DNA from: Chloroflexota bacterium
Lineage (GTDB): Bacteria > Chloroflexota > UBA11872 > VXOZ01
Assembly: GCA_963662335.2 (NCBI GenBank)
Contig: CAXXVD010000001.1
Location: 96,001-160,000, forward strand
Length of the DNA stretch: 64,000 nucleotides
Direction: 5' to 3'
Notes under the pieces: model-generated
Told to the model about the DNA's origin: nothing
Database searches by the model: none
The model's input: the letters and a program-made list of their open reading frames with translations, nothing else
Shown here: piece after piece, positions 902 through 64,000 of the stretch
Layout: each line of letters starts with the position of its first letter
Numbering within the stretch: the stretch's first letter is position 1
Translations under genes and position numbers: made by a program

Positions 902-1576
902 CTATTCCCGATCGCGCGCCTGAAGCACGCATCGGAGGAGACGCAAAGACTCCACCGCAAACTGTCGTTGATTTGCCCCGCGCCCGCCATCCGGCAGCAG
1001 AAGCGTGGACGTCCAAACACGCTCCCGCCCATCATGCACTTCCGCCGTAGCGCGGGGGCTTGTCCCCCGCCCACGCGCAAGTTCCGCTTCGCTCTCCAGC
1101 CCTTCGGTAGCGCGGGGGCTTGTCCCCCGCTCTTGCGCGGATGTCCCTGCTTCAACCGGCCCGGCCACGGCCAGGCACACCATCCCCACCGGTTTCGCCG
1201 AACGGCGGCCGGTCTGGGGTCCGGCAATACCGCTTTCCGCCAATGCCCATTGACAGTCAAACGCGCCGCGAACATACCGCGCCAACGCCGCTACGTACTC
1301 CTCACTCACGACACCGTGTGTGCGCGCTACACCGCTAATATCCCGCGCCAGCGGCGCGTCGCTGCCGGCATACACGACCACCCCGCCGCGAAACCGCGTC
1401 TCAAACGCGGCGACGGCGCTGAGCGCGCTGGCGAGCGCGCCGCCCCCAGCAGTCTCACCCACCGCCAGCGTCTCGCCGCGCTGGGCAAGCACGTCGCCCA
1501 CCTCTTCCGCCAACCGCCGCAACTCATGGCGGCCGGACTGCGCCGGTTCACTCGGCAAGGGTGCGTTCATCGCCAT
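902..1576 (-). CDS. CinA C-terminal / PncC-like protein with an in-frame REP-derived insertion
   Basis: TLAVGETAGGG, GVVVY, HGVVSEE, SGIAGP and KPVGMVCLAV match the CinA/PncC fold; start overlaps the selB 3' end. Confidence 0.75.
   Translation of the reverse strand: MAMNAPLPSEPAQSGRHELRRLAEEVGDVLAQRGETLAVGETAGGGALASALSAVAAFETRFRGGVVVYAGSDAPLARDISGVARTHGVVSEEYVAALARYVRGAFDCQWALAESGIAGPQTGRRSAKPVGMVCLAVAGPVEAGTSAQERGTSPRATEGLESEAELARGRGTSPRATAEVHDGRERVWTSTLLLPDGGRGANQRQFAVESLRLLRCVLQARDRE
1047..1130 (+). repeat. Two family-A REP copies (1047-1070, 1107-1130) inside the CinA CDS
   Basis: Identical 24-mers 60 bp apart; encode RGTSPRAT twice on the minus strand. Confidence 0.85.
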
Positions 1577-3419
1577 GCCTTCGGGTCACGCCGTCGCGGT
1601 CCATTTGCTCTAGCAGCGGCAGCACGTACTTGCGGCTGGTGCCAAAGGCGTCACGCACCTGGGCCACGGTCGCCCGCCCCTCCCGGCCCAAGAATTCCCG
1701 CACGCGCGCCACCGCCTGCGCGTAGGCCTTACGCGAGTAGACGAGGTCGGTGTCCAGCCGGATGATGCGGCCCTGCGCCGCCAGCACGTTCAGGAAGTCT
1801 TCATCCAGCGCCAACGTCTTGCGCACCTCAGCCAAACTCGGCGGCGCGAACGGCTCCCGCTCCAGCGCGGCGAGCAGCGCGTTTGCGGTCTCTTCCTGCC
1901 GCGCGTCCAGCCCAATGCGAAAACCGAAGAGGCGCAACGCGCCTTGCTCTTCAGCAACTGCCTCGTCGGCAGAGAGGCGCTGTATGACCTCGTTGAACAC
2001 GCGGCTATGCAAGCCGAGATGACGCCGCACTTCCTCCTTGCCTTGCCCGTTGCGTAGGGGATACCGTTCGTGGAAACCCTGGAGCAGAGCGGTCACGCGC
2101 GCCGTAATCTCAGTCCAACCGGCCGCGGAGTAGAGCGAGCGGCCGAGGTCTACGGCCAGTTCCGCGCCCAACAGCCGCGCCAGGATTTCGTCAATTTCCG
2201 CAGCGGTATGCGGCAGCACACCGGCGATCTCGGCGCGCGTGCAGGGCTCCCGTTGCCGTAAGGCCTGCAGAACGACGTCGTCGGGTGAGCCGCGTTCCAA
2301 CGTAGCCAAAGCCGCGATCACGTCGTGCGCAAAGCGTTTGTGGCGCGGCGGGTAGGGGTCGAGCACTTCCCCGCCGCCCAGCGTGCACGCCGGGCTGAGC
2401 TGGCGGAGGATGAAGAGGTCGCCCTTGCTGAGGCACACCGGCTTTACGAGCAGCAGTTGCGCCAGCCCGTCCGCCCCGGGCGGGATTGATTCGCGGTCGA
2501 GCAGACGCACCCGCGCCAGCGTCTCCATGGTCCCGCTGTGGAAGGCCACCACGGTCCCATGCGCCAGCGGCCGCGGCGCGGCGGGCAAGACGCGCACGCG
2601 CACGTCGGCGAAGCGCGTGGCGGCGAGCCTTTGTGGCAACGTCAGCACCTGACCGCGATAGACGTCATCCGTGTCAACGCCGCCGACGTTCACGGCAACG
2701 CGATTGCCGGGCAGGGCGGACTCCAGCGCGTGCTTGTGACTCTGCAAGCCGCGAATGCGGCCGCTCACGTTGCCGGGGACGAACTGCACGTCGTCACCGA
2801 CCTGCAGTTGACCGTCCAGCAGCGTGCCGGTAACGATTGTGCCGAAGCCGCTGAGCGTAAACGCCCGGTCGATGGGCAGGCGCGGCCGGCCTACGTCTCG
2901 CTTCGCCGCCGTTTCCGCGAGCAAGGCGTCTAGGGCCGCGCGGAGCGCGTCCAGCCCCTGGCCCGTGACCGCGGAGACGCGCACGAGCGGGCTGTCGGCG
3001 AGCACGGTCTCCGCCACCGTCTCACGTGCTTCTTCTTCTACGAGTTGCAGCCACTCTTCATCCTCCACCAGGTCGCAGCGCGTCAATACCAGGATGCCCG
3101 CCGGCACGCGCAGCAAGTCGAGAATATCCAGGTGCTCGCGGGTCTGCGGCATCACGCCTTCGTCGGCGGCAATCACCAGCAGCGCCGCGTCGATGCCGCC
3201 CACGCCGGCCAGCATGTTCTTGATGAAGCGCTCGTGGCCCGGCACGTCTACAATGGAAATCTCCTTGCCGCTGGGCAGGGAGAGCCAGGCGAAGCCCAGG
3301 TCGATCGTCAACCCGCGCTCTTTCTCCTCGCGGAGCCGGTCCGGGTCGATGCCGGTGAGCGCCTGGATGAGCGTGGACTTGCCGTGGTCTACGTGTCCCG
3401 CGGTGCCGATCGTGTACAT
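1548..3419 (-). CDS. selB: Selenocysteine-specific translation elongation factor
   Basis: [44 protein letters not shown], and C-terminal winged-helix region ending [14 protein letters not shown]. Confidence 0.96.
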
Positions 3420-10500: not shown

Positions 10501-10634
10501 GTCGGCCCGCCCGCGCCCCGCCGGCGGCAGTAAACCGCGACCGGTTGTAGGCGCGCGCACAGATAAATGTCCCGCATCCGGTATACTAGGACTAGAGCCG
10601 CCAAGACGCGCGTTGCAAGAGGAGGTTGCGCGGC

Positions 10635-11372
10635 ATGATACTCGAGGTTGGCATTGCCTTCGGCGCCGGCGTTCTCTCCTTCCTCTCACCCTGCTTTCTG
10701 CCGCTGGTGCCCGCCTATCTGGTCTATCTCGGCGGCCGCCACGTCAACGCGGTGCGCCACGATCAGCCGGCCCAGCGCGCCGTCATCATCAATGCGCTCG
10801 CCTTCATTCTCGGCTTTGGCACGATCTTCGTCGCGCTGGGCGTTGCCATCACGTTCGTCGGCCTGGCTTTTCAGCAGGGCTTGCCGACAATGCGGCTCGT
10901 GGGCGGCGCGCTGCTGGTCGTCTTTGGCTTGAGTTTTCTTGGGTTCCTGCGCATTCCCTGGCTGCAGCAGATCCTGCAGCGTGAGGTCTCGCTCCGCAAT
11001 ACGCCCCTGGGGCGCATCGACACCGAAAAGACCGGCCCGCCCACGTCGTTCTTGATTGGCCTCGTGTTCGGCACCGGCTGGACGCCGTGCGTGGGGCCGA
11101 TTCTTTCCGGGATTTTGCTCCAGGCCTCCGGCTCCGGCACCGTGCTCCAGGGCGGCATTCTGCTGGCAATCTACGCCGCCGGTATGGGCCTGCCGTTTCT
11201 TGCAATGGCGGTGGCGATCGAGCGCGCTAGCGCGGTCCTGAACTGGCTCAAGTCACACATGCTCGTGGTAGAGCGGGCGAGCGGGGTCTTCTTGATACTC
11301 ATGGGCATCGCGGTCGCGTCCAATTTCCTCGCGTACGTCAGCAGTATTCTCGGATTGTATTCGTTAGGGTAG
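10635..11372 (+). CDS. ccdA: CcdA/DsbD-beta family transmembrane electron transporter
   Basis: SFLSPCFLPLVP and GWTPCVGP (both redox Cys), about six TM segments, GAGGAGG RBS. Confidence 0.9.
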   Translation: MILEVGIAFGAGVLSFLSPCFLPLVPAYLVYLGGRHVNAVRHDQPAQRAVIINALAFILGFGTIFVALGVAITFVGLAFQQGLPTMRLVGGALLVVFGLSFLGFLRIPWLQQILQREVSLRNTPLGRIDTEKTGPPTSFLIGLVFGTGWTPCVGPILSGILLQASGSGTVLQGGILLAIYAAGMGLPFLAMAVAIERASAVLNWLKSHMLVVERASGVFLILMGIAVASNFLAYVSSILGLYSLG

Positions 11373-11483
11373 GCGCCCGAGACGACCGCGAGCCACAGCC
11401 CGCCTACAGAGGTGAAGAGCGCCAATGCCGGCGCGAGGATATACGTCATTCACAGGACGACTGCTATGAAGAGGAGGAAGGCA

Positions 11484-12140
11484 ATGCAACGGAGACGCCT
11501 ACTGTCACTGCTGTTCGCCGGCGCGTCCGCCACCGCCCTGGCGGCCTGCGGCGGCGGGTCGGACGAGACGGATGCGGCGGAAGAAGAGACTGCCGGCTCC
11601 GCGCAGGGGTCCGCAGCGGAGCCTACCGCGGCCCCAAAACAGGCGGAGATTCCCCCAACCCCCGCGCCCACCGCGGCGCCGGAACTGGACTTGCCCATGC
11701 TGGGCAAAGCGCCCGAAATCAACCTCGACACGTGGTTCAATTCCGAGCCAATTACGATGGCCAGCCTGGAGGGCAAGGCCGCGGCCCTGGTGGTCTTCTG
11801 GACCTACACCTGACCGGTGTGCCGCAGCGAAGTCCCCAGTTTGGTGGACCTCTTCAATACCTATCACGACGATAGGTTCAAGCTCATCACCGTGCACTTC
11901 CCGTATGCCGGCTCATCCCTGGACGCGGCGAAGATCAAGGAGCAAGCGGACAATCTTGGCGTCACCTATCCCGTTGTCGTCGACAACGACCTCTCGCTTT
12001 GGAATGCCTACGGCAACCGCGTGTTCCCGTCCTTCTACGGCATCGACCGGCAGGGCAACATCCGCTTTGCCAAGTTCGGCGGCGGCGACGGCATGGAAGC
12101 CGTTTTCGAAGCGGTGAAGAAACTCAAGGAGTTTGGCTAG
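11484..12140 (+). CDS. Tat-type lipoprotein thioredoxin-fold redoxin (TlpA/DipZ-like), putative selenoprotein with UxxC; TGA at 11811-11813 read as Sec
   Basis: MQRRRLL..LAAC signal; VVFWTYT-TGA-PVC continues in frame into ITVHFP, YPVVVDND, YGNRVFPSFYGIDRQGNIRF; split by the track into 11412..11813 and 11817..12140. Confidence 0.85.
11832..11849 (+). promoter_or_regulatory. Candidate bacterial SECIS hairpin
   Basis: GTCC-CCA-GTT-TGG-T-GGAC starting 18 nt after the TGA; same geometry as the hairpin at 60948-60965. Confidence 0.55.
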
Positions 12141-59046: not shown

Positions 59047-60441
59047 ATGAGCACCACCGTCGAGACTTCCAACCGTACGCTTGACGAACTCTTTGTCCGG
59101 CAGTTTGCCGGCTCCGCCGCGCGCTTCCAGGAAGCCGTCGGCATCTTTCCCAATGGCGCGACCCACGATAGCCGCGCGCAGAAACCCTTTCCGCTCTACA
59201 TCGAGCGGGCGCAGGGTGCGCACAAGTGGGACGTGGACGGCAATCGCATCATCGACTTTCTCGTCGGCCACGGCGCGTTGCTGCTCGGCCACGGCCACCC
59301 CGACGTTGTCGCGGCCGTAAACGACCAGATGCAGCGCGGCACGCACTACGGCGCGGCGCACGAGCGCGAAATCGAATGGGGCCGCTGGGTGCAGCGGCTC
59401 GTGCCCGCCGCCGAGCGCGTGCGCTTTACCGGCACCGGCACTGAGGCCACTCTCATGTGCCTGCGGCTGGCGCGCGCGTATACCGGCAAAAGCAAAGTTA
59501 TCAAATTCGAGCATCACTTCCACGGTTGGCACGACTACGTGGTGGTGGAAGAACCGCCCGCGCCGCCGCCCGCCGGTGTCCCCGCGGGCACGGCCGGCTC
59601 AATGCTCGTGCTGCCGGTGCATGATCCGGAGCGGCTGGAGTCCGTCTTGCGCAGCGACCCCGACATTGCCGCCGTCATCCTGGAACCCACCGGCGCGGGG
59701 TACTCTTCGCATCCGCTCGATCCCGACTTCCTGGCAGCCGTGCGCAAACTCACGCTGGACTACGGCGTGCTGCTCATCATGGACGAGGTGATAACCGGCT
59801 TTCGCTGCTCACCGGGCGGCGCGCAGGCGGCCACCGGCGTCATTCCCGACCTCACGAGCCTGGCGAAGATTCTGGCCGGCGGTTTGCCCGGCGGCGCGGT
59901 AGCCGGGCGCGCCGACATCCTCGCCCACCTGGAATACCGCGCTGAACCGGGGTGGAACGCCCGCAAGAAAATTCGCCACCAGGGCACGTTCAACGCTAAC
60001 CCGTTGTCGGCTGCGGCCGGCACTACTGCCCTGTCAATCGTGGCCGAAGGCTGGCCGGCCCGCCACGTCAACGACCTGGCGGCCATGCTGCGCACTGAAC
60101 TCAACCAGGTCATGGACGCCCACGGCCTTACCGGCTGCGTCTACGGCACGTACTCCATGTTCCACATCCTGCTCTACAATCCCCACAATCCCCACGAGAA
60201 GATCAACCTGGCGGATTTCGATTCCGCCGATGCCCAGCCGTTCCTCACCATGCGGGACGCGGATGCGGCGCTCTACGGCAAGCTGAAACGCGGCTTGCAG
60301 GTCAACGGCGTGGACCTCATGGGCGACGGCGGCATGCTCTCCACCGCGCACACCGAGGAAGACGTGCGCGAAGCGGCTGCGGCTTTCGACCGCACGGTGG
60401 ACCTCTTGAAGCGGGAAGGCGCGATTCCCGGCGTCCGGTAG
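59047..60441 (+). CDS. Class III PLP aminotransferase (HemL-like paralog)
   Basis: WDVDGN, LLGH, RFTGTGTEA, FHG, DEVITGFR, AKILAGGLP, HQGTFNANP. Confidence 0.87.
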   Translation: MSTTVETSNRTLDELFVRQFAGSAARFQEAVGIFPNGATHDSRAQKPFPLYIERAQGAHKWDVDGNRIIDFLVGHGALLLGHGHPDVVAAVNDQMQRGTHYGAAHEREIEWGRWVQRLVPAAERVRFTGTGTEATLMCLRLARAYTGKSKVIKFEHHFHGWHDYVVVEEPPAPPPAGVPAGTAGSMLVLPVHDPERLESVLRSDPDIAAVILEPTGAGYSSHPLDPDFLAAVRKLTLDYGVLLIMDEVITGFRCSPGGAQAATGVIPDLTSLAKILAGGLPGGAVAGRADILAHLEYRAEPGWNARKKIRHQGTFNANPLSAAAGTTALSIVAEGWPARHVNDLAAMLRTELNQVMDAHGLTGCVYGTYSMFHILLYNPHNPHEKINLADFDSADAQPFLTMRDADAALYGKLKRGLQVNGVDLMGDGGMLSTAHTEEDVREAAAAFDRTVDLLKREGAIPGVR

Positions 60442-60519
60442 CACAGGCGGCTACGTCCTGGTAGTACTCGATGCGCCGGCGCTTCATCGCTTGCGGCTGC
60501 CACGCGGGGTGGGCAGAGA

Positions 60520-60597
60520 GGGCGCAGGTTGCAAACCTACGCTACCGCTATTGCCGCCAGTACATTCGGGCGCAGGTTGCAAACCTACGCTACCGCT
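60520..60597 (-). repeat. Two tandem GTAG-type REPs, family E, 48-bp period
   Basis: GGGCGCAGGTTGCAAACCTACGCTACCGCT at 60520-60549 and 60568-60597. Confidence 0.82.
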
Positions 60598-60656
60598 GTC
60601 ACGGCCTATCGATTTGAGCGCGTTGGACCACGGTCCGGCAGCGCGTGGCGCGCTGG

Positions 60657-61226
60657 CTAGGCGTCTTGCTCTTTGAGGTATTCGATAGCGCCGCGCACCA
60701 CGTCGAAGCGGCCCTCGCCGACCTTGGCCAAGCGCACGTCGCCCCGGCGGTCGATGAGGTAGAGGGTCGGCCAGGCGCGGTTGCCAAACGCCCGCCAAAT
60801 CTTGAAGTCGTTGTCGATGGCGACGGGATAGGGCACGCCGAGCCGATCAACGGCCTTGCGCACGTTTTCCACGACCTTCTCGTGGACGAACTCAGGCGTG
60901 TGGATGCTGAGCAGCGTGAAGCGGTCATCCGCGTAGGTGTTGTGAATATCCACCAGACCGGGGATGTCGTTGAGGCAGTTAATTCAGCCGTAGGTCCAGA
61001 AGCCGATCCCAACTGCCGACTTTCCCCGAAAACCCGCCAGCGTAAGCGGCTCCGAGTTGATCCACGTGGCCGAACTAATCTCCGGCGCTTTGCCGAGCCT
61101 CGGTAGACCGTCAAAGTGCCGTACTTCGCCGCCGCCGCTTTCCGTAAGCGACGACCCGCCGCACGCGCTCAGCCCAATTGCCGCTGCGCCGCCGGCCAGT
61201 CCGTAGAGCAGGTTTCGCCTTCGCAT
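60657..61226 (-). CDS. Tat-type lipoprotein thioredoxin-fold redoxin (DipZ-like), putative selenoprotein with UxxC; TGA at 60986-60984 read as Sec
   Basis: MRRRNLL..LSAC; WINSEPL; FWTYG-TGA-INC matches DipZ FWTYxCINC; continues IHTPEF, YPVAIDND, NRAWPTLYLID, VGEG; split by the track into 60984..61229 and 60657..60953. Confidence 0.88.
60948..60965 (-). promoter_or_regulatory. Candidate bacterial SECIS hairpin
   Basis: ATCC-CCG-GTC-TGG-T-GGAT starting 18 nt after the TGA; apical GGUCU resembles the E. coli fdhF SECIS loop. Confidence 0.6.
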
Positions 61227-61241
61227 CACCGGCCTCCTCTA

Positions 61242-63842
61242 TCAGCCCACCACCACGTTTATCAAGCGGCCCGGCACGTATTTGACCAGTCTGACGTCCC
61301 GGCCGTCCAAGAACTGCTGTACGCGCGCGCTCGCCAGCGCCAATTCGCGGGCGCCGTCCTCGTCCAGCGAGACGCTGGCCTCGATCGTATCGCGCACGCG
61401 GCCGTTCACCTGGACGACCAGCGTAAACGTCTCCTCCTGGATGAGCGCCTCGTCGAATTCCGGCCACTCCTGCTGGTGGACGGAGAATTCATGCCCCCAG
61501 CGTTCCCACACTTCCTCGGCCAGGTGGGGCGCGACCGGCGCGAGCACCAGCAGGAACTGTTCCATCGCCGTGCGCCACGTCTCGGTGGCCGCCAACTCCG
61601 GCGAGTAGACTTTGTAGAGCCAGTTGGTAAACTCCATGAAATACGCGACCATGGTGTTGAACTTCATGGCGTCGATGTCCTCGCCGGCGCGCTTGATCAC
61701 GCGGTTGATCCAGCGCGTCAACTCGGCCTCGGCCTTCTCCACCGGCAGCGGCTCGCTGCCCTGCTCCACCCGGCCCAGCAGCATGTTCCACACGCGCACC
61801 AGCCAGCGGCGCGCGCCGGGAATGCCCTCCGTGCTCCACTCGATGTTCTGGTCGAATGGGCCCATGAAGAGTTCATACACGCGCAGCGCGTCAACGCCGA
61901 ACTTCTCTACCATTTCATCCGGGCCAATGACGTTGCCGCGGCTCTTGGACATCCTGCTGCCGTCCGGCGCCAACACCACGCCCTGGTGCCGCAGTTTGGT
62001 AAACGGCTCGTTGAAGTCGATGAGCATGGCGTCTTTGATGACTTTCGTCCAGAAACGCGCGTAGATCAGGTGCATGGTGGCGTGCTCGGCGCCGCCGACG
62101 TAGAGGTCAACCGGCAGCCAGTGGCGCGCTTTGTCCAGGCCGAACGGCAGTTCGTCGTTCTGCGGATCGGCAAAGCGCAGGAAGTACCACGATGAGCACG
62201 CGAACGTATCCATGGTGTCCGTCTCGCGCTCGGCGGGACCGCCGCAGTCCGGGCACGTGGTGGCAACGAACGACCCCGCCTTGGCGAGCGGCGAGCGACC
62301 GTCGCCGGTGGGTTGGAAGTCTTCAATTTCCGGCAGCAGCACCGGCAGTTGCGGCGTGGGCATCTCGACCCAACCGCACTTCGGGCACTTGACCATGGGA
62401 ATTGGCGCGCCCCAGTAGCGCTGGCGCGAAATCAGCCAGTCCCTCATGCGGTATTGCACCTTGGCGCCGCCCAGGTCGCGCTCCTTCAGCCACCCGGTTA
62501 TTCTTTCCCCACCTTCAGTGGACGTTTCGCCGTCGAACGCGCCGGAATTCACCAGCGTGCCTTCGCCCTCGTAGGCGTCGGCAACGGCCCAGTCGACGTC
62601 GTCCGGCGGTTGCACCACCACGCGCACGTCCAGGCCGAACTTCTGAGCGAACTCGAAGTCCCGCTGGTCGTGGGCGGGCACCGCCATGATCGCGCCGGTG
62701 CCGTAGGTCACCAGTACGTAATCGGCGATCCAGATTGGGATGTGTTCGTCGTTCACGGGATTGACGGCGTAGGAGCCGGTGAAGACGCCGGTCTTCTCGC
62801 GCTCGGCGGACTGGCGCTCGGTTTCTTCCGTACGCTCCGCGGCGGCCACGTAGCGCGCCACGGCCTCCTTCTGTTCCGGCTTCGTGAGCTTGTCCACCAG
62901 GTCGTGTTCCGGCGCCAGCACCATGAAAGTCGCGCCGAACAACGTATCCGCGCGCGTGGTAAAGACCCGCAGTTCGTCACCGAATTCCGTCAGAAAGACG
63001 GCTTCCGTGCCCTCGCTGCGGCCAATCCAATTGCGCTGCATCTCCTTGGTGGATTCCGGCCAGTCCAGTTTCTCCAGGTCGTTCAGCAGGCGGTCGGCGT
63101 ACTTGGTAATCGCGAAGTACCACTGCTCCAGGCTCTTCTTCTCCACCAGCGAATCGCAACGCCAGCAGCGGCCGTCGTGCACCTGCTCGTTGGCCAGGAT
63201 GGTCTGGCAGGAAGGACACCACCACTGCTGGCCCTTGGCCTTGTACGCCAAGCCGCGGCGGTGAATCAGCAAGAACAGCCACTGCGTAAACTTGTAGTAT
63301 TCCGGCGCGCTGGAGTCGATCTCGCGCTCCCAATCGAACGAGCACCCAATCAGGTCGAGTTGGCGTTTGTAGTTGGCGGTGTTCTGGTCCACGGTCAGCC
63401 GGGGCGCGATGCCCGTATCGCGGGCGCGGTTCTCGGCGGGCAAGCCAAAGGCGTCCCAACCCATAGGGTGCAGCACGTTATAGCCGCGCATGCGCATCTG
63501 GCGGGAGATGACGTCCGTGGGGATATAGTTGTGGCAGTGACCGACGGAGATGCCGTCCCCCGACGGATACGGGAAGAAGTCAAGACAGTAGAACGTCTTG
63601 CGGCTGTCCTCGCTGTCTGCGGTCTTGTAGAGGCTGGTATCGCGCCAGCGCGCCTGCCAGGCCTGCTCGAAATCCTGCGGCTGGTATTCCTCTGAGACTT
63701 CCTTTGCCGACGCCTGGGTTTCGTCGGCCGGCGCTTCCGCCGGGACGGTCTCCGCTGGGGATTCCTCTGGGTTGGCTTCCGCCGGCGCCGCCACGGGAGT
63801 TTCTACTTCGCCCGCCGCTGCCGGCTCATCCGCTTGGCTCAT
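61242..63842 (-). CDS. leuS: Leucine--tRNA ligase
   Basis: FPYPSG..SVGH, PMGWDAFGLPAEN, LANEQV, MQRNWIGRSEG, FTTRADT, GTGAIMAVPAHDQRD, WLISRQRYWGAPIP, RMSKS, QVNGRVR. Confidence 0.96.
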   Translation of the reverse strand: MSQADEPAAAGEVETPVAAPAEANPEESPAETVPAEAPADETQASAKEVSEEYQPQDFEQAWQARWRDTSLYKTADSEDSRKTFYCLDFFPYPSGDGISVGHCHNYIPTDVISRQMRMRGYNVLHPMGWDAFGLPAENRARDTGIAPRLTVDQNTANYKRQLDLIGCSFDWEREIDSSAPEYYKFTQWLFLLIHRRGLAYKAKGQQWWCPSCQTILANEQVHDGRCWRCDSLVEKKSLEQWYFAITKYADRLLNDLEKLDWPESTKEMQRNWIGRSEGTEAVFLTEFGDELRVFTTRADTLFGATFMVLAPEHDLVDKLTKPEQKEAVARYVAAAERTEETERQSAEREKTGVFTGSYAVNPVNDEHIPIWIADYVLVTYGTGAIMAVPAHDQRDFEFAQKFGLDVRVVVQPPDDVDWAVADAYEGEGTLVNSGAFDGETSTEGGERITGWLKERDLGGAKVQYRMRDWLISRQRYWGAPIPMVKCPKCGWVEMPTPQLPVLLPEIEDFQPTGDGRSPLAKAGSFVATTCPDCGGPAERETDTMDTFACSSWYFLRFADPQNDELPFGLDKARHWLPVDLYVGGAEHATMHLIYARFWTKVIKDAMLIDFNEPFTKLRHQGVVLAPDGSRMSKSRGNVIGPDEMVEKFGVDALRVYELFMGPFDQNIEWSTEGIPGARRWLVRVWNMLLGRVEQGSEPLPVEKAEAELTRWINRVIKRAGEDIDAMKFNTMVAYFMEFTNWLYKVYSPELAATETWRTAMEQFLLVLAPVAPHLAEEVWERWGHEFSVHQQEWPEFDEALIQEETFTLVVQVNGRVRDTIEASVSLDEDGARELALASARVQQFLDGRDVRLVKYVPGRLINVVVG

Positions 63843-64000
63843 GTTCTCCAACGCCTCCGCGTACGTTTTGCGTCCAAATCTACGTCTAGTGATGTAATTC
63901 CGAAGCACTGTACGCCCATTGTAGCATAGAAGGAAGCCTCTCCCCGCTGTAGATTGCAATCTTTCTGTAGCTGTAGCATTTGATGGTGAGATTACGCGAG

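Follow-up and report, generated by a model that had tools for sequence, protein, structure and literature searches.

DipZ consists of a CcdA-like N-terminal membrane domain fused to a redoxin domain. The lipoproteins Etrx1 and Etrx2 of Streptococcus pneumoniae receive electrons from CcdA proteins and hand them on to a methionine sulfoxide reductase at the cell surface, an arrangement that is the basis of our working model. Here we describe a Chloroflexota gene whose product is closest, by sequence and by fold, to the C-terminal redoxin domain of DipZ, and in which an in-frame TGA takes the place of the first active-site cysteine. The gene lies on the minus strand at 60657..61226 of a 64,000-nucleotide stretch (the window; positions 96,001 to 160,000 of contig CAXXVD010000001.1, assembly GCA_963662335.2), directly behind the leucyl-tRNA synthetase gene leuS. 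The window's genome is an assembly of 3.2 Mb in five contigs and is 96% complete. Judged from comparative sequence evidence, the gene very probably encodes a real selenocysteine (Sec)-containing redoxin of the thioredoxin fold.

Thioredoxin-fold selenoproteins with a UxxC motif (U, Sec) have long been known, and the present gene adds a DipZ-type lipoprotein example to them. A 2006 survey lists, among its families, 'Prx-like thiol:disulfide oxidoreductase' and 'Thiol:disulfide interchange protein', and Cys-to-Sec conversions concentrate there in thiol oxidoreductases (PMC1794560). The Global Ocean Sampling (GOS) survey includes Prx-like 1 (pfam00578, UxxC) and Prx-like 3 (pfam08534, UxxC) (PMC2398784). 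Predicted UxxC families such as 'Thiol-disulfide isomerase-like' (cd02966, TlpA-like) and 'Redoxin family protein' (PF08534) are found across PMC1794560, PMC2398784 and PMC13188914, the last of which gives TxxU as the motif of Sec peroxiredoxins. In BSepDB, metagenome-assembled genomes of Chloroflexota are among the most selenoprotein-rich bacteria (PMC13326102). Like the catalogued UxxC families, the gene described here matches Pfam PF00578 and PF08534, has UxxC for CxxC, has abundant Cys homologues and carries a putative Sec insertion sequence (SECIS) just downstream. Compared by description only, it differs from them in its DipZ-C-terminal subtype motif FWTYxUINC, in being a predicted lipoprotein and in occurring as two to three paralogues in one genus. 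Our literature search did not find a DipZ-type Sec lipoprotein described, although the supplementary tables of the catalogues may list it.

The frame from ATG 61226 to the stop codon TAG 60657 has one interruption only, TGA 60986..60984, and encodes 189 amino acids (aa), or 190 aa if read from the GTG at 61229, one codon 5' of the ATG. The span given in the original prediction, 60657-61226, is exactly this coding sequence, ATG through stop. The in-frame TGA (60984..60986, minus strand; codon 81 from the ATG, 82 from the GTG) falls on the first Cys position of WxxCxxC and replaces the N-terminal Cys of the CxxC motif, and the product around it reads ...GIGFWTYG-U-INCLNDIPGLVD... The resolving Cys of U-x-x-C is encoded by TGC at 60975..60977, and N84 and C85 (counted from the GTG) are nearly invariant in the homologue alignment. 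Translation table 11 cuts the gene into an 81-aa open reading frame (60984..61229) and a 98-aa open reading frame (60657..60953). A collection of 5.8 billion proteins contains this protein and those of its congeners in pieces only: 98 aa long in 17 clusters, 78-81 aa in 22 and 66 aa in one, this protein itself being represented by pieces of 80 and 98 aa. Some of the 98-aa fragments bear the Joint Genome Institute (JGI) name 'alkyl hydroperoxide reductase subunit AhpC', and no full-length relative closer than 52% identity is among the matches listed.

The best Pfam match of the protein was AhpC-TSA (PF00578, 1.1e-9), and Redoxin (PF08534) and Thioredoxin_8 (PF13905) were also matched. The closest solved relative was the C-terminal domain of Mycobacterium tuberculosis DipZ (2HYX, E 7.7e-33, residues 42-184), whose FWAYSCINC is aligned to FWTYGUINC, so that the DipZ-like thioredoxin domain with FWTYG-TGA-INC read earlier from the sequence alone is confirmed. 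An AlphaFold model built from an alignment of 18 rows had a predicted local distance difference test score (pLDDT) of 87.9 overall and >93 from residue 41. Its fold is of the TlpA/ResA thioredoxin type, and the residue encoded by the TGA comes immediately before helix 83-99; the thioredoxin-type arrangement, W-x-x-C-x-x-C at the N-terminus of helix 1, is thus present with U for the first C. The best fold match of the model was again the DipZ C-terminal domain (5CYY/2HYX, TMq 0.75, 38% identity), and further matches were NHLRC2, SOQ1, ResA and the pneumococcal lipoprotein thioredoxin Etrx2. By sequence, the thioredoxin-like domains of NHLRC2 (6GC1) and SOQ1 (7DJJ) were the second-best solved relatives (E 1e-21 to 1e-23). 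We conclude that the protein is a DipZ-C-terminal-type, TlpA/ResA-like thioredoxin-fold redoxin with the active site W-T-Y-G-U-I-N-C.

The protein is not a full-length DipZ. DipZ has Cys and a further C-terminal domain, PF17991, whereas the present protein has Sec and stands alone with its own signal peptide, and a Pfam scan of its 190 aa found neither DsbD_TM nor PF17991. Cys-type homologues with an extra PF17991, as in the C-terminal part of DipZ, do occur in another family of the class (f6; L034, L035, L037), and the Sec lipoprotein forms have no PF17991. NCBIfam ResA/TlpA models matched only far under their cut-offs. The score against the ResA (cytochrome c maturation) equivalog NF002854 was 46.8 bits against a cut-off of 170, a general family likeness only. 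The ResA-like WAxxUGC selenoprotein family NF041054 has the same TlpA/ResA-like fold and an active-site Sec, but its motif is U-G-C instead of U-I-N-C, and the protein (WTYGUINC) scores 15.8 bits where the cut-off is 300, which places it outside this family. Etrx1 and Etrx2 (2YP6, 4HQZ), by entry titles and fold match, resemble it as lipoprotein-anchored TlpA-like thioredoxins, but they are Cys enzymes of 23-25% identity to it, and no methionine sulfoxide reductase partner was identified for the Chloroflexota protein.

Relatives were collected by a six-frame search of 40 genomes, 41 including the window's, of which 16 others belong to the same genus. All 16 have an orthologue, at 76-81% identity and each with exactly one in-frame TGA, and in the codon alignment the TGA stands at one column in 17/17 genus genomes; the conservation for which the original prediction had proposed a search is therefore seen in every genus genome examined. 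At the U column, Cys was found in every one of the 16 database homologues aligned (taken from 120 listed; 152 found in all), and Cys forms with FWT..CINC were present in the nine class relatives, from other families, whose motif was read. A scan of named loci gave 46 CxxC and 3 UxxC with 31 of 80 loci unparsed; it used a Cys-containing pattern, and this biased tally is not used as a frequency. The mean pairwise ratio of nonsynonymous to synonymous substitution rates (dN/dS) was 0.127 behind the TGA (codons 83-190, 108 codons); the part of the domain ahead of it gave 0.146, and signal peptide and linker gave 0.258. The half downstream of the TGA is thus constrained at least as much as the upstream half, and it is not decaying in relatives as a pseudogene would be expected to. 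A Cys-type redoxin gene broken by a random nonsense mutation or by faulty base calling might have been suspected, since table 11 splits the frame and public gene calls hold fragments only. The same TGA column is found, however, in 17 independently assembled genomes and in 30 genes of two paralogous lineages described below, the downstream codons are under the purifying selection just given, and the 17 clusters of 98-aa and 23 clusters of 66-81-aa fragments come from many assemblies. We regard a pseudogene or assembly error as having a negligible chance of being the explanation.

The genome has the complete machinery for Sec insertion. The Sec-specific elongation factor gene selB is in the window (1557..3410, minus strand; TIGR00475, 381 bits against a cut-off of 242) and its product has SelB-wing_2 and SelB-wing_3, the SECIS-binding winged-helix domains. 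SelA (562 bits) and SelD (380 bits) were found in the same genome, and one tRNA-Sec scored 67.8 bits, with anticodon TCA according to ARAGORN, which completes the set of selA, selB, selD and tRNA-Sec of a bacterium making selenoproteins. The SelD gene (G000:C1:382996-383925, outside the window) carries its own TGA (...ACAG-U-AGK...), with a G+C-rich hairpin with a GUG loop ~25 nt downstream. SelB was found in 34 of the 41 genomes. It was found in none of the four genomes of one family (f4; single-contig, 95-96% complete), where only Cys forms occur, and the three TGA-bearing genomes without a SelB match are 69-87% complete.

A rival reading is that the UGA is decoded by a standard tRNA (a Trp, Cys or Arg near-cognate) or under a reassigned code, and sequence alone cannot separate Sec insertion from read-through without Sec. 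TGA is, however, an ordinary stop here and not reassigned, because leuS itself ends in TGA, 15 nt upstream of the redoxin gene. The residue aligned with the TGA is the invariant catalytic Cys, a dedicated hairpin follows the TGA, selA, selB, selD and tRNA-Sec are all present, and the genomes in which SelB was not found carry Cys forms. Read-through other than by Sec is highly improbable in our judgement, and we return to Sec as the preferred reading of this codon.

In bacterial SECIS elements such as that of Escherichia coli fdhF, the stem has 6 bp and a bulged U, and the small apical loop contains GU; one criterion for a bacterial selenoprotein is that a stem-loop with G/U in such a loop follows soon behind the UGA. 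Downstream of the TGA, at 60945..60968 on the minus strand (core 60965..60948), the redoxin gene has the SECIS-like hairpin AUCCCC-GGUCU-GG(U)GGAU. Its core begins 21 nt after the U of UGA; the stem has 6 bp, with one U bulging out on the 3' side, and the apical loop of 5 nt, GGUCU, contains GU. Among the 17 orthologues, the 6 third codon positions in the hairpin are all fixed. In flanking codons 9 of 11 such positions are variable (Fisher 0.002), and elsewhere in the mature domain 115 of 138 are (4e-5). In an alignment of 47 orthologue and paralogue sequences (39 distinct rows, three paralogue lineages), the closing pair 22-39 is A-U in 31 of the distinct rows and G-C in the other 8, with no mismatch, and the switch links an Ile/Val codon to a synonymous Asp codon. 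Six of the eight pairs (five core, one outer) are invariant and the outermost pair is formed in 28/39 rows. When the 3' partners were slid by 1-3 columns, 37-54% of cells could pair, compared with 96.5% in register. Two copies of the motif, and no more, are present in the 3.2-Mb genome, each 21 nt behind a TGA, that of this gene or that of paralogue A (see below).

On these comparative data the gene has a SECIS-type stem-loop, but the single-sequence minimum-energy fold differs. RNAfold of the 71 nt from this gene prefers another pairing (z -1.13), and the claim of a hairpin rests on the comparative data since the single-sequence fold is unremarkable; the corresponding stretch of paralogue A does give the hairpin (z -2.11). 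Rfam searched over 60300-61400 returned a chance match alone (GRIK4 3' untranslated region, E 0.21, below gathering) and none of its curated bacterial SECIS families.

Several other points, together with the fold just mentioned, weigh against our reading of the gene as a selenoprotein gene. The genus genomes are related to each other, so counts across them are not independent. The hairpin codes for a conserved peptide, I/V-P-G/S-L/W-V-D, and part of its invariance is therefore protein constraint. Only a single pair covaries, and the six of eight pairs that never vary are uninformative either way. Furthermore, selenium insertion and a full-length protein are predictions from sequence. Taken together, conservation of the TGA, Sec/Cys pairing, selection, the hairpin, the machinery, the use of TGA as a stop and the co-occurrence with SelB nevertheless make it hard to argue for a pseudogene, for an assembly error or for codon reassignment.

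A paralogue, A, lies in the window at 11412..12140 (plus strand). It is a Sec redoxin with the motif FWTYT-U-PVC and a TGA at 11811..11813, its likely start being an internal ATG near 11484 (MQRRRLL...), and its hairpin core, GUCCCC-AGUUU-GG(U)GGAC, is at 11832..11849 (plus strand). It is 48% identical to the leuS-linked redoxin over residues 41-187, and the two TGAs are 49.2 kb apart. With paralogues collected from 15 congeners, lineages A, of 17 genes, and B, of 13, were recognized besides the leuS-linked one; all of these genes have the TGA at the same place and the same hairpin. The same stop in the same column of two paralogues 49 kb apart had been held to be hard to explain by chance, and the small selenoprotein family proposed on that ground is strongly supported by the TGA in 17/17 genomes, the Sec/Cys pairing, the selection, the hairpin and the Sec machinery. 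Its two members hold for the window, but the family is larger, since the genus usually holds three Sec redoxin paralogues. Paralogue B (...UPVCRGEIPSWVDIQ...) is convergent to paralogue A in 13 of 16 genomes examined (L138-L152); a second A-like copy is at the paralogue B site in G016, and the window's genome and G011 have no paralogue B.

A maximum-likelihood tree built on the redoxin domain grouped all 47 of the genus's Sec lipoprotein genes together (SH-aLRT 98), and this group splits into the leuS-linked lineage (17) and A+B (30, support 100). This tree had 71 rows, including one mis-extracted row (L036, branch length 10), and left out three NHL forms; a second tree was made without L036 and with the three NHL forms, and 14 of the 152 database homologues were in the trees. 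Because the genus genes form a single tree group and their hairpins are nearly identical, one Sec-bearing ancestor followed by duplication fits them.

Sec in this domain is also found outside the genus. In other families of the class, 16 genomes have open frames of 519-826 aa with a TGA at the same column, and three of these (L044, L045, L046) have the motif FWTFC-U-INC and a 6-7-bp hairpin with a GGUCUG or AGUU loop at the same offset. NHL repeats, giving an NHLRC2/SOQ1-like architecture, were found in the one long Sec form scanned. The leuS-linked redoxin has no NHL domain, and the Trx-NHL proteins of sister families share with it the TGA column and the hairpin offset; 'NHL' is absent from the main text of a 2026 selenoproteome review. 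The free tree placed the three NHL Sec forms apart from the lipoprotein forms, which means two changes of state, and a tree joining all 50 Sec rows was not rejected by the approximately unbiased test (p-AU 0.67). It is a tentative and rather doubtful idea that Sec in a DipZ-type domain, with a SECIS at codons +7 to +12, was an old single invention of this Chloroflexota class that would have been inherited by the lipoprotein redoxins (three paralogues, one of them captured behind leuS and co-expressed) and by the Trx-NHL proteins.

A ccdA gene (DsbD_TM, PF02683, 2.4e-19; 10626..11372, plus strand) lies 40 nt upstream of paralogue A. The two make up a split DipZ-like pair, with CcdA as the candidate electron donor. 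The original prediction spoke of a single CcdA that the redoxins might share, but this is so in the window only: the genome has two DsbD_TM genes, the second at C5:474387. The selB gene is ~8 kb from the ccdA/paralogue A pair in the window. The spacing is similar in G012 (paralogues at C17:139503-140910, selB at 148540-150393) and in G001 (paralogues at 2172493-2173667, selB at 2162554-2164407).

The leuS-linked redoxin has the N-terminal signal sequence MRRRNLLYGLAGGAAAIGLSAC. The signal peptide (61161..61226, minus strand) has an RR n-region and the lipobox L-S-A-C, with the Cys codon at 61163..61161. The lipobox is found in 17/17 orthologues and consecutive RR in 16/17, and both TatC and LspA are present in the window's genome. 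The protein is thus likely to be a lipoprotein, as had been proposed, and export by the twin-arginine translocation (Tat) pathway is plausible from its signal sequence; for the Tat part of the proposal, however, a Tat-signal hidden Markov model gave no match at E <= 0.01. Lipidation is also called into question by Lgt (PF01790), which was not found in the window's 96%-complete assembly. Since LspA is present and Lgt was found in 16/16 congeners, its lack here is probably an assembly gap.

We propose the following course of expression. The mRNA would most likely be the tail of the leuS transcript in the window's genome, with translation starting at ATG 61226. SelB-GTP with Sec-tRNA(Sec) would be recruited by the hairpin at 60965..60948, and Sec would be inserted at UGA 60986..60984 to give the full 189 aa. 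The RR/lipobox signal peptide would send the protein out of the cytoplasm, possibly by the Tat pathway, and Cys22 would be lipidated. The predicted product is a membrane-tethered domain of the DipZ-C-terminal/TlpA/ResA type with the redox pair Sec81-x-x-Cys84 (counted from the ATG). Its likely role would be that of an extracytoplasmic thiol-disulfide (selenosulfide) reductase, kept reduced by the CcdA membrane electron shuttle and passing electrons to oxidised surface or periplasmic-side proteins.

A reductase is suggested because the protein has a W-x-x-U-x-x-C thioredoxin-type site and its nearest characterised relatives are extracytoplasmic reductases, and reduction by CcdA because the adjacent ccdA and paralogue A genes mirror the DipZ fusion. 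The main functional rival is a thiol(selenol) peroxidase that detoxifies surface peroxides and does not reduce protein disulfides. AhpC-TSA is the best Pfam match of the protein, the JGI fragment name is AhpC, and Sec generally favours peroxide reduction. The motif is, however, W-x-x-U-x-x-C at the N-terminus of a helix and not the T-x-x-C of peroxiredoxins, the nearest structures are the reductases or thioredoxin-like proteins DipZ, ResA, Etrx2 and NHLRC2, and ccdA precedes paralogue A. We consider a peroxidase unlikely. The role as a CcdA-fed reductase is only somewhat favoured. Points against our reading are that the nearest ccdA is 49 kb from this gene, with a second ccdA elsewhere in the genome, and that no gene near it points to a substrate. 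By analogy with known systems, surface methionine sulfoxide reductase, apocytochromes and oxidised envelope proteins are candidate substrates.

The leuS gene (61242..63959, minus strand; tRNA-synt_1_2, 2.7e-68) is directly upstream on the same strand. Across the junction, TGA 61244..61242 ends leuS, TAGAGGAGGCCGGTG comes next and the ATG of the redoxin gene follows. The gap is 15 nt and contains the ribosome binding site (RBS) GAGGAGG at 61233..61239 (minus strand), read directly from the sequence, so that the RBS abuts the leuS stop as originally described. Co-transcription with leuS in the window's genome is the simplest reading, and plausible on the sequence of the junction, because the gap is too short to hold a promoter and a scan of 60300-61500 gave no promoter-like site. 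Promoter-like sites were likewise not found in the spacers of three of the 16 congeners. Terminator-like sites were at chance level, with one at 60650..60664 (plus strand) in the window, one in the spacer of L026 and none in two other congener spacers. These scans, covering the window region and three congener spacers, are uninformative.

A functional link, in which the redoxin would be tied obligately to leuS in one operon and might, for instance, protect or sense at the pace of translation capacity, could be read from the presence of leuS upstream on the same strand in 17/17 genus genomes and from the 15-nt gap with its RBS and no promoter-like site. The spacer is, however, 15 nt in the window's genome only; one congener has 80 nt, and the remaining 15 have 303-663 nt of poorly conserved sequence that can be aligned only between close pairs. 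The linkage that was to be looked for in relatives is present in every genus genome, but leuS was beside the homologue in none of 13 class relatives from other families and at none of 77 named loci from outside the genus. Where a named locus did have leuS beside the homologue (three cases), it belonged to the same genus. Synteny within one genus is weak evidence, and the two products act in different compartments. An obligate partnership with leuS is improbable, and the 15-nt arrangement is, on this comparison, local and derived.

On the other side of the redoxin gene, a convergent class-III aminotransferase gene (PF00202, 1.2e-53; window 59047..60441, plus strand) ends 216 nt from the redoxin stop. 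It adjoins the redoxin gene in only 2 of the 17 genus genomes, the window's and that of one congener. Between them, at window 60520..60615, are two tandem copies of a 48-nt unit that are 81% alike. A 22-nt core of this unit has 10 occurrences in the genome, a small dispersed repeat family. As a filler of the long leuS-redoxin spacers of the congeners the 48-nt repeat was rejected, since blastn-short gave no match.

The known workings of selenoproteins are unchanged by this gene. It corrects annotation, because public gene calls wrongly split it in two, and with such genes held only as fragments the selenoproteome of these uncultured Chloroflexota is under-counted. The hairpin would be a clean natural SECIS lying within conserved coding DNA; over the three paralogue lineages it shows a compensatory change, and its synonymous sites are frozen. 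If the single old invention of Sec in this class is true, it would mean an uncatalogued selenium-dependent extracytoplasmic reducing system. These results suggest that selenium supply would affect the maintenance of envelope redox state in this lineage.

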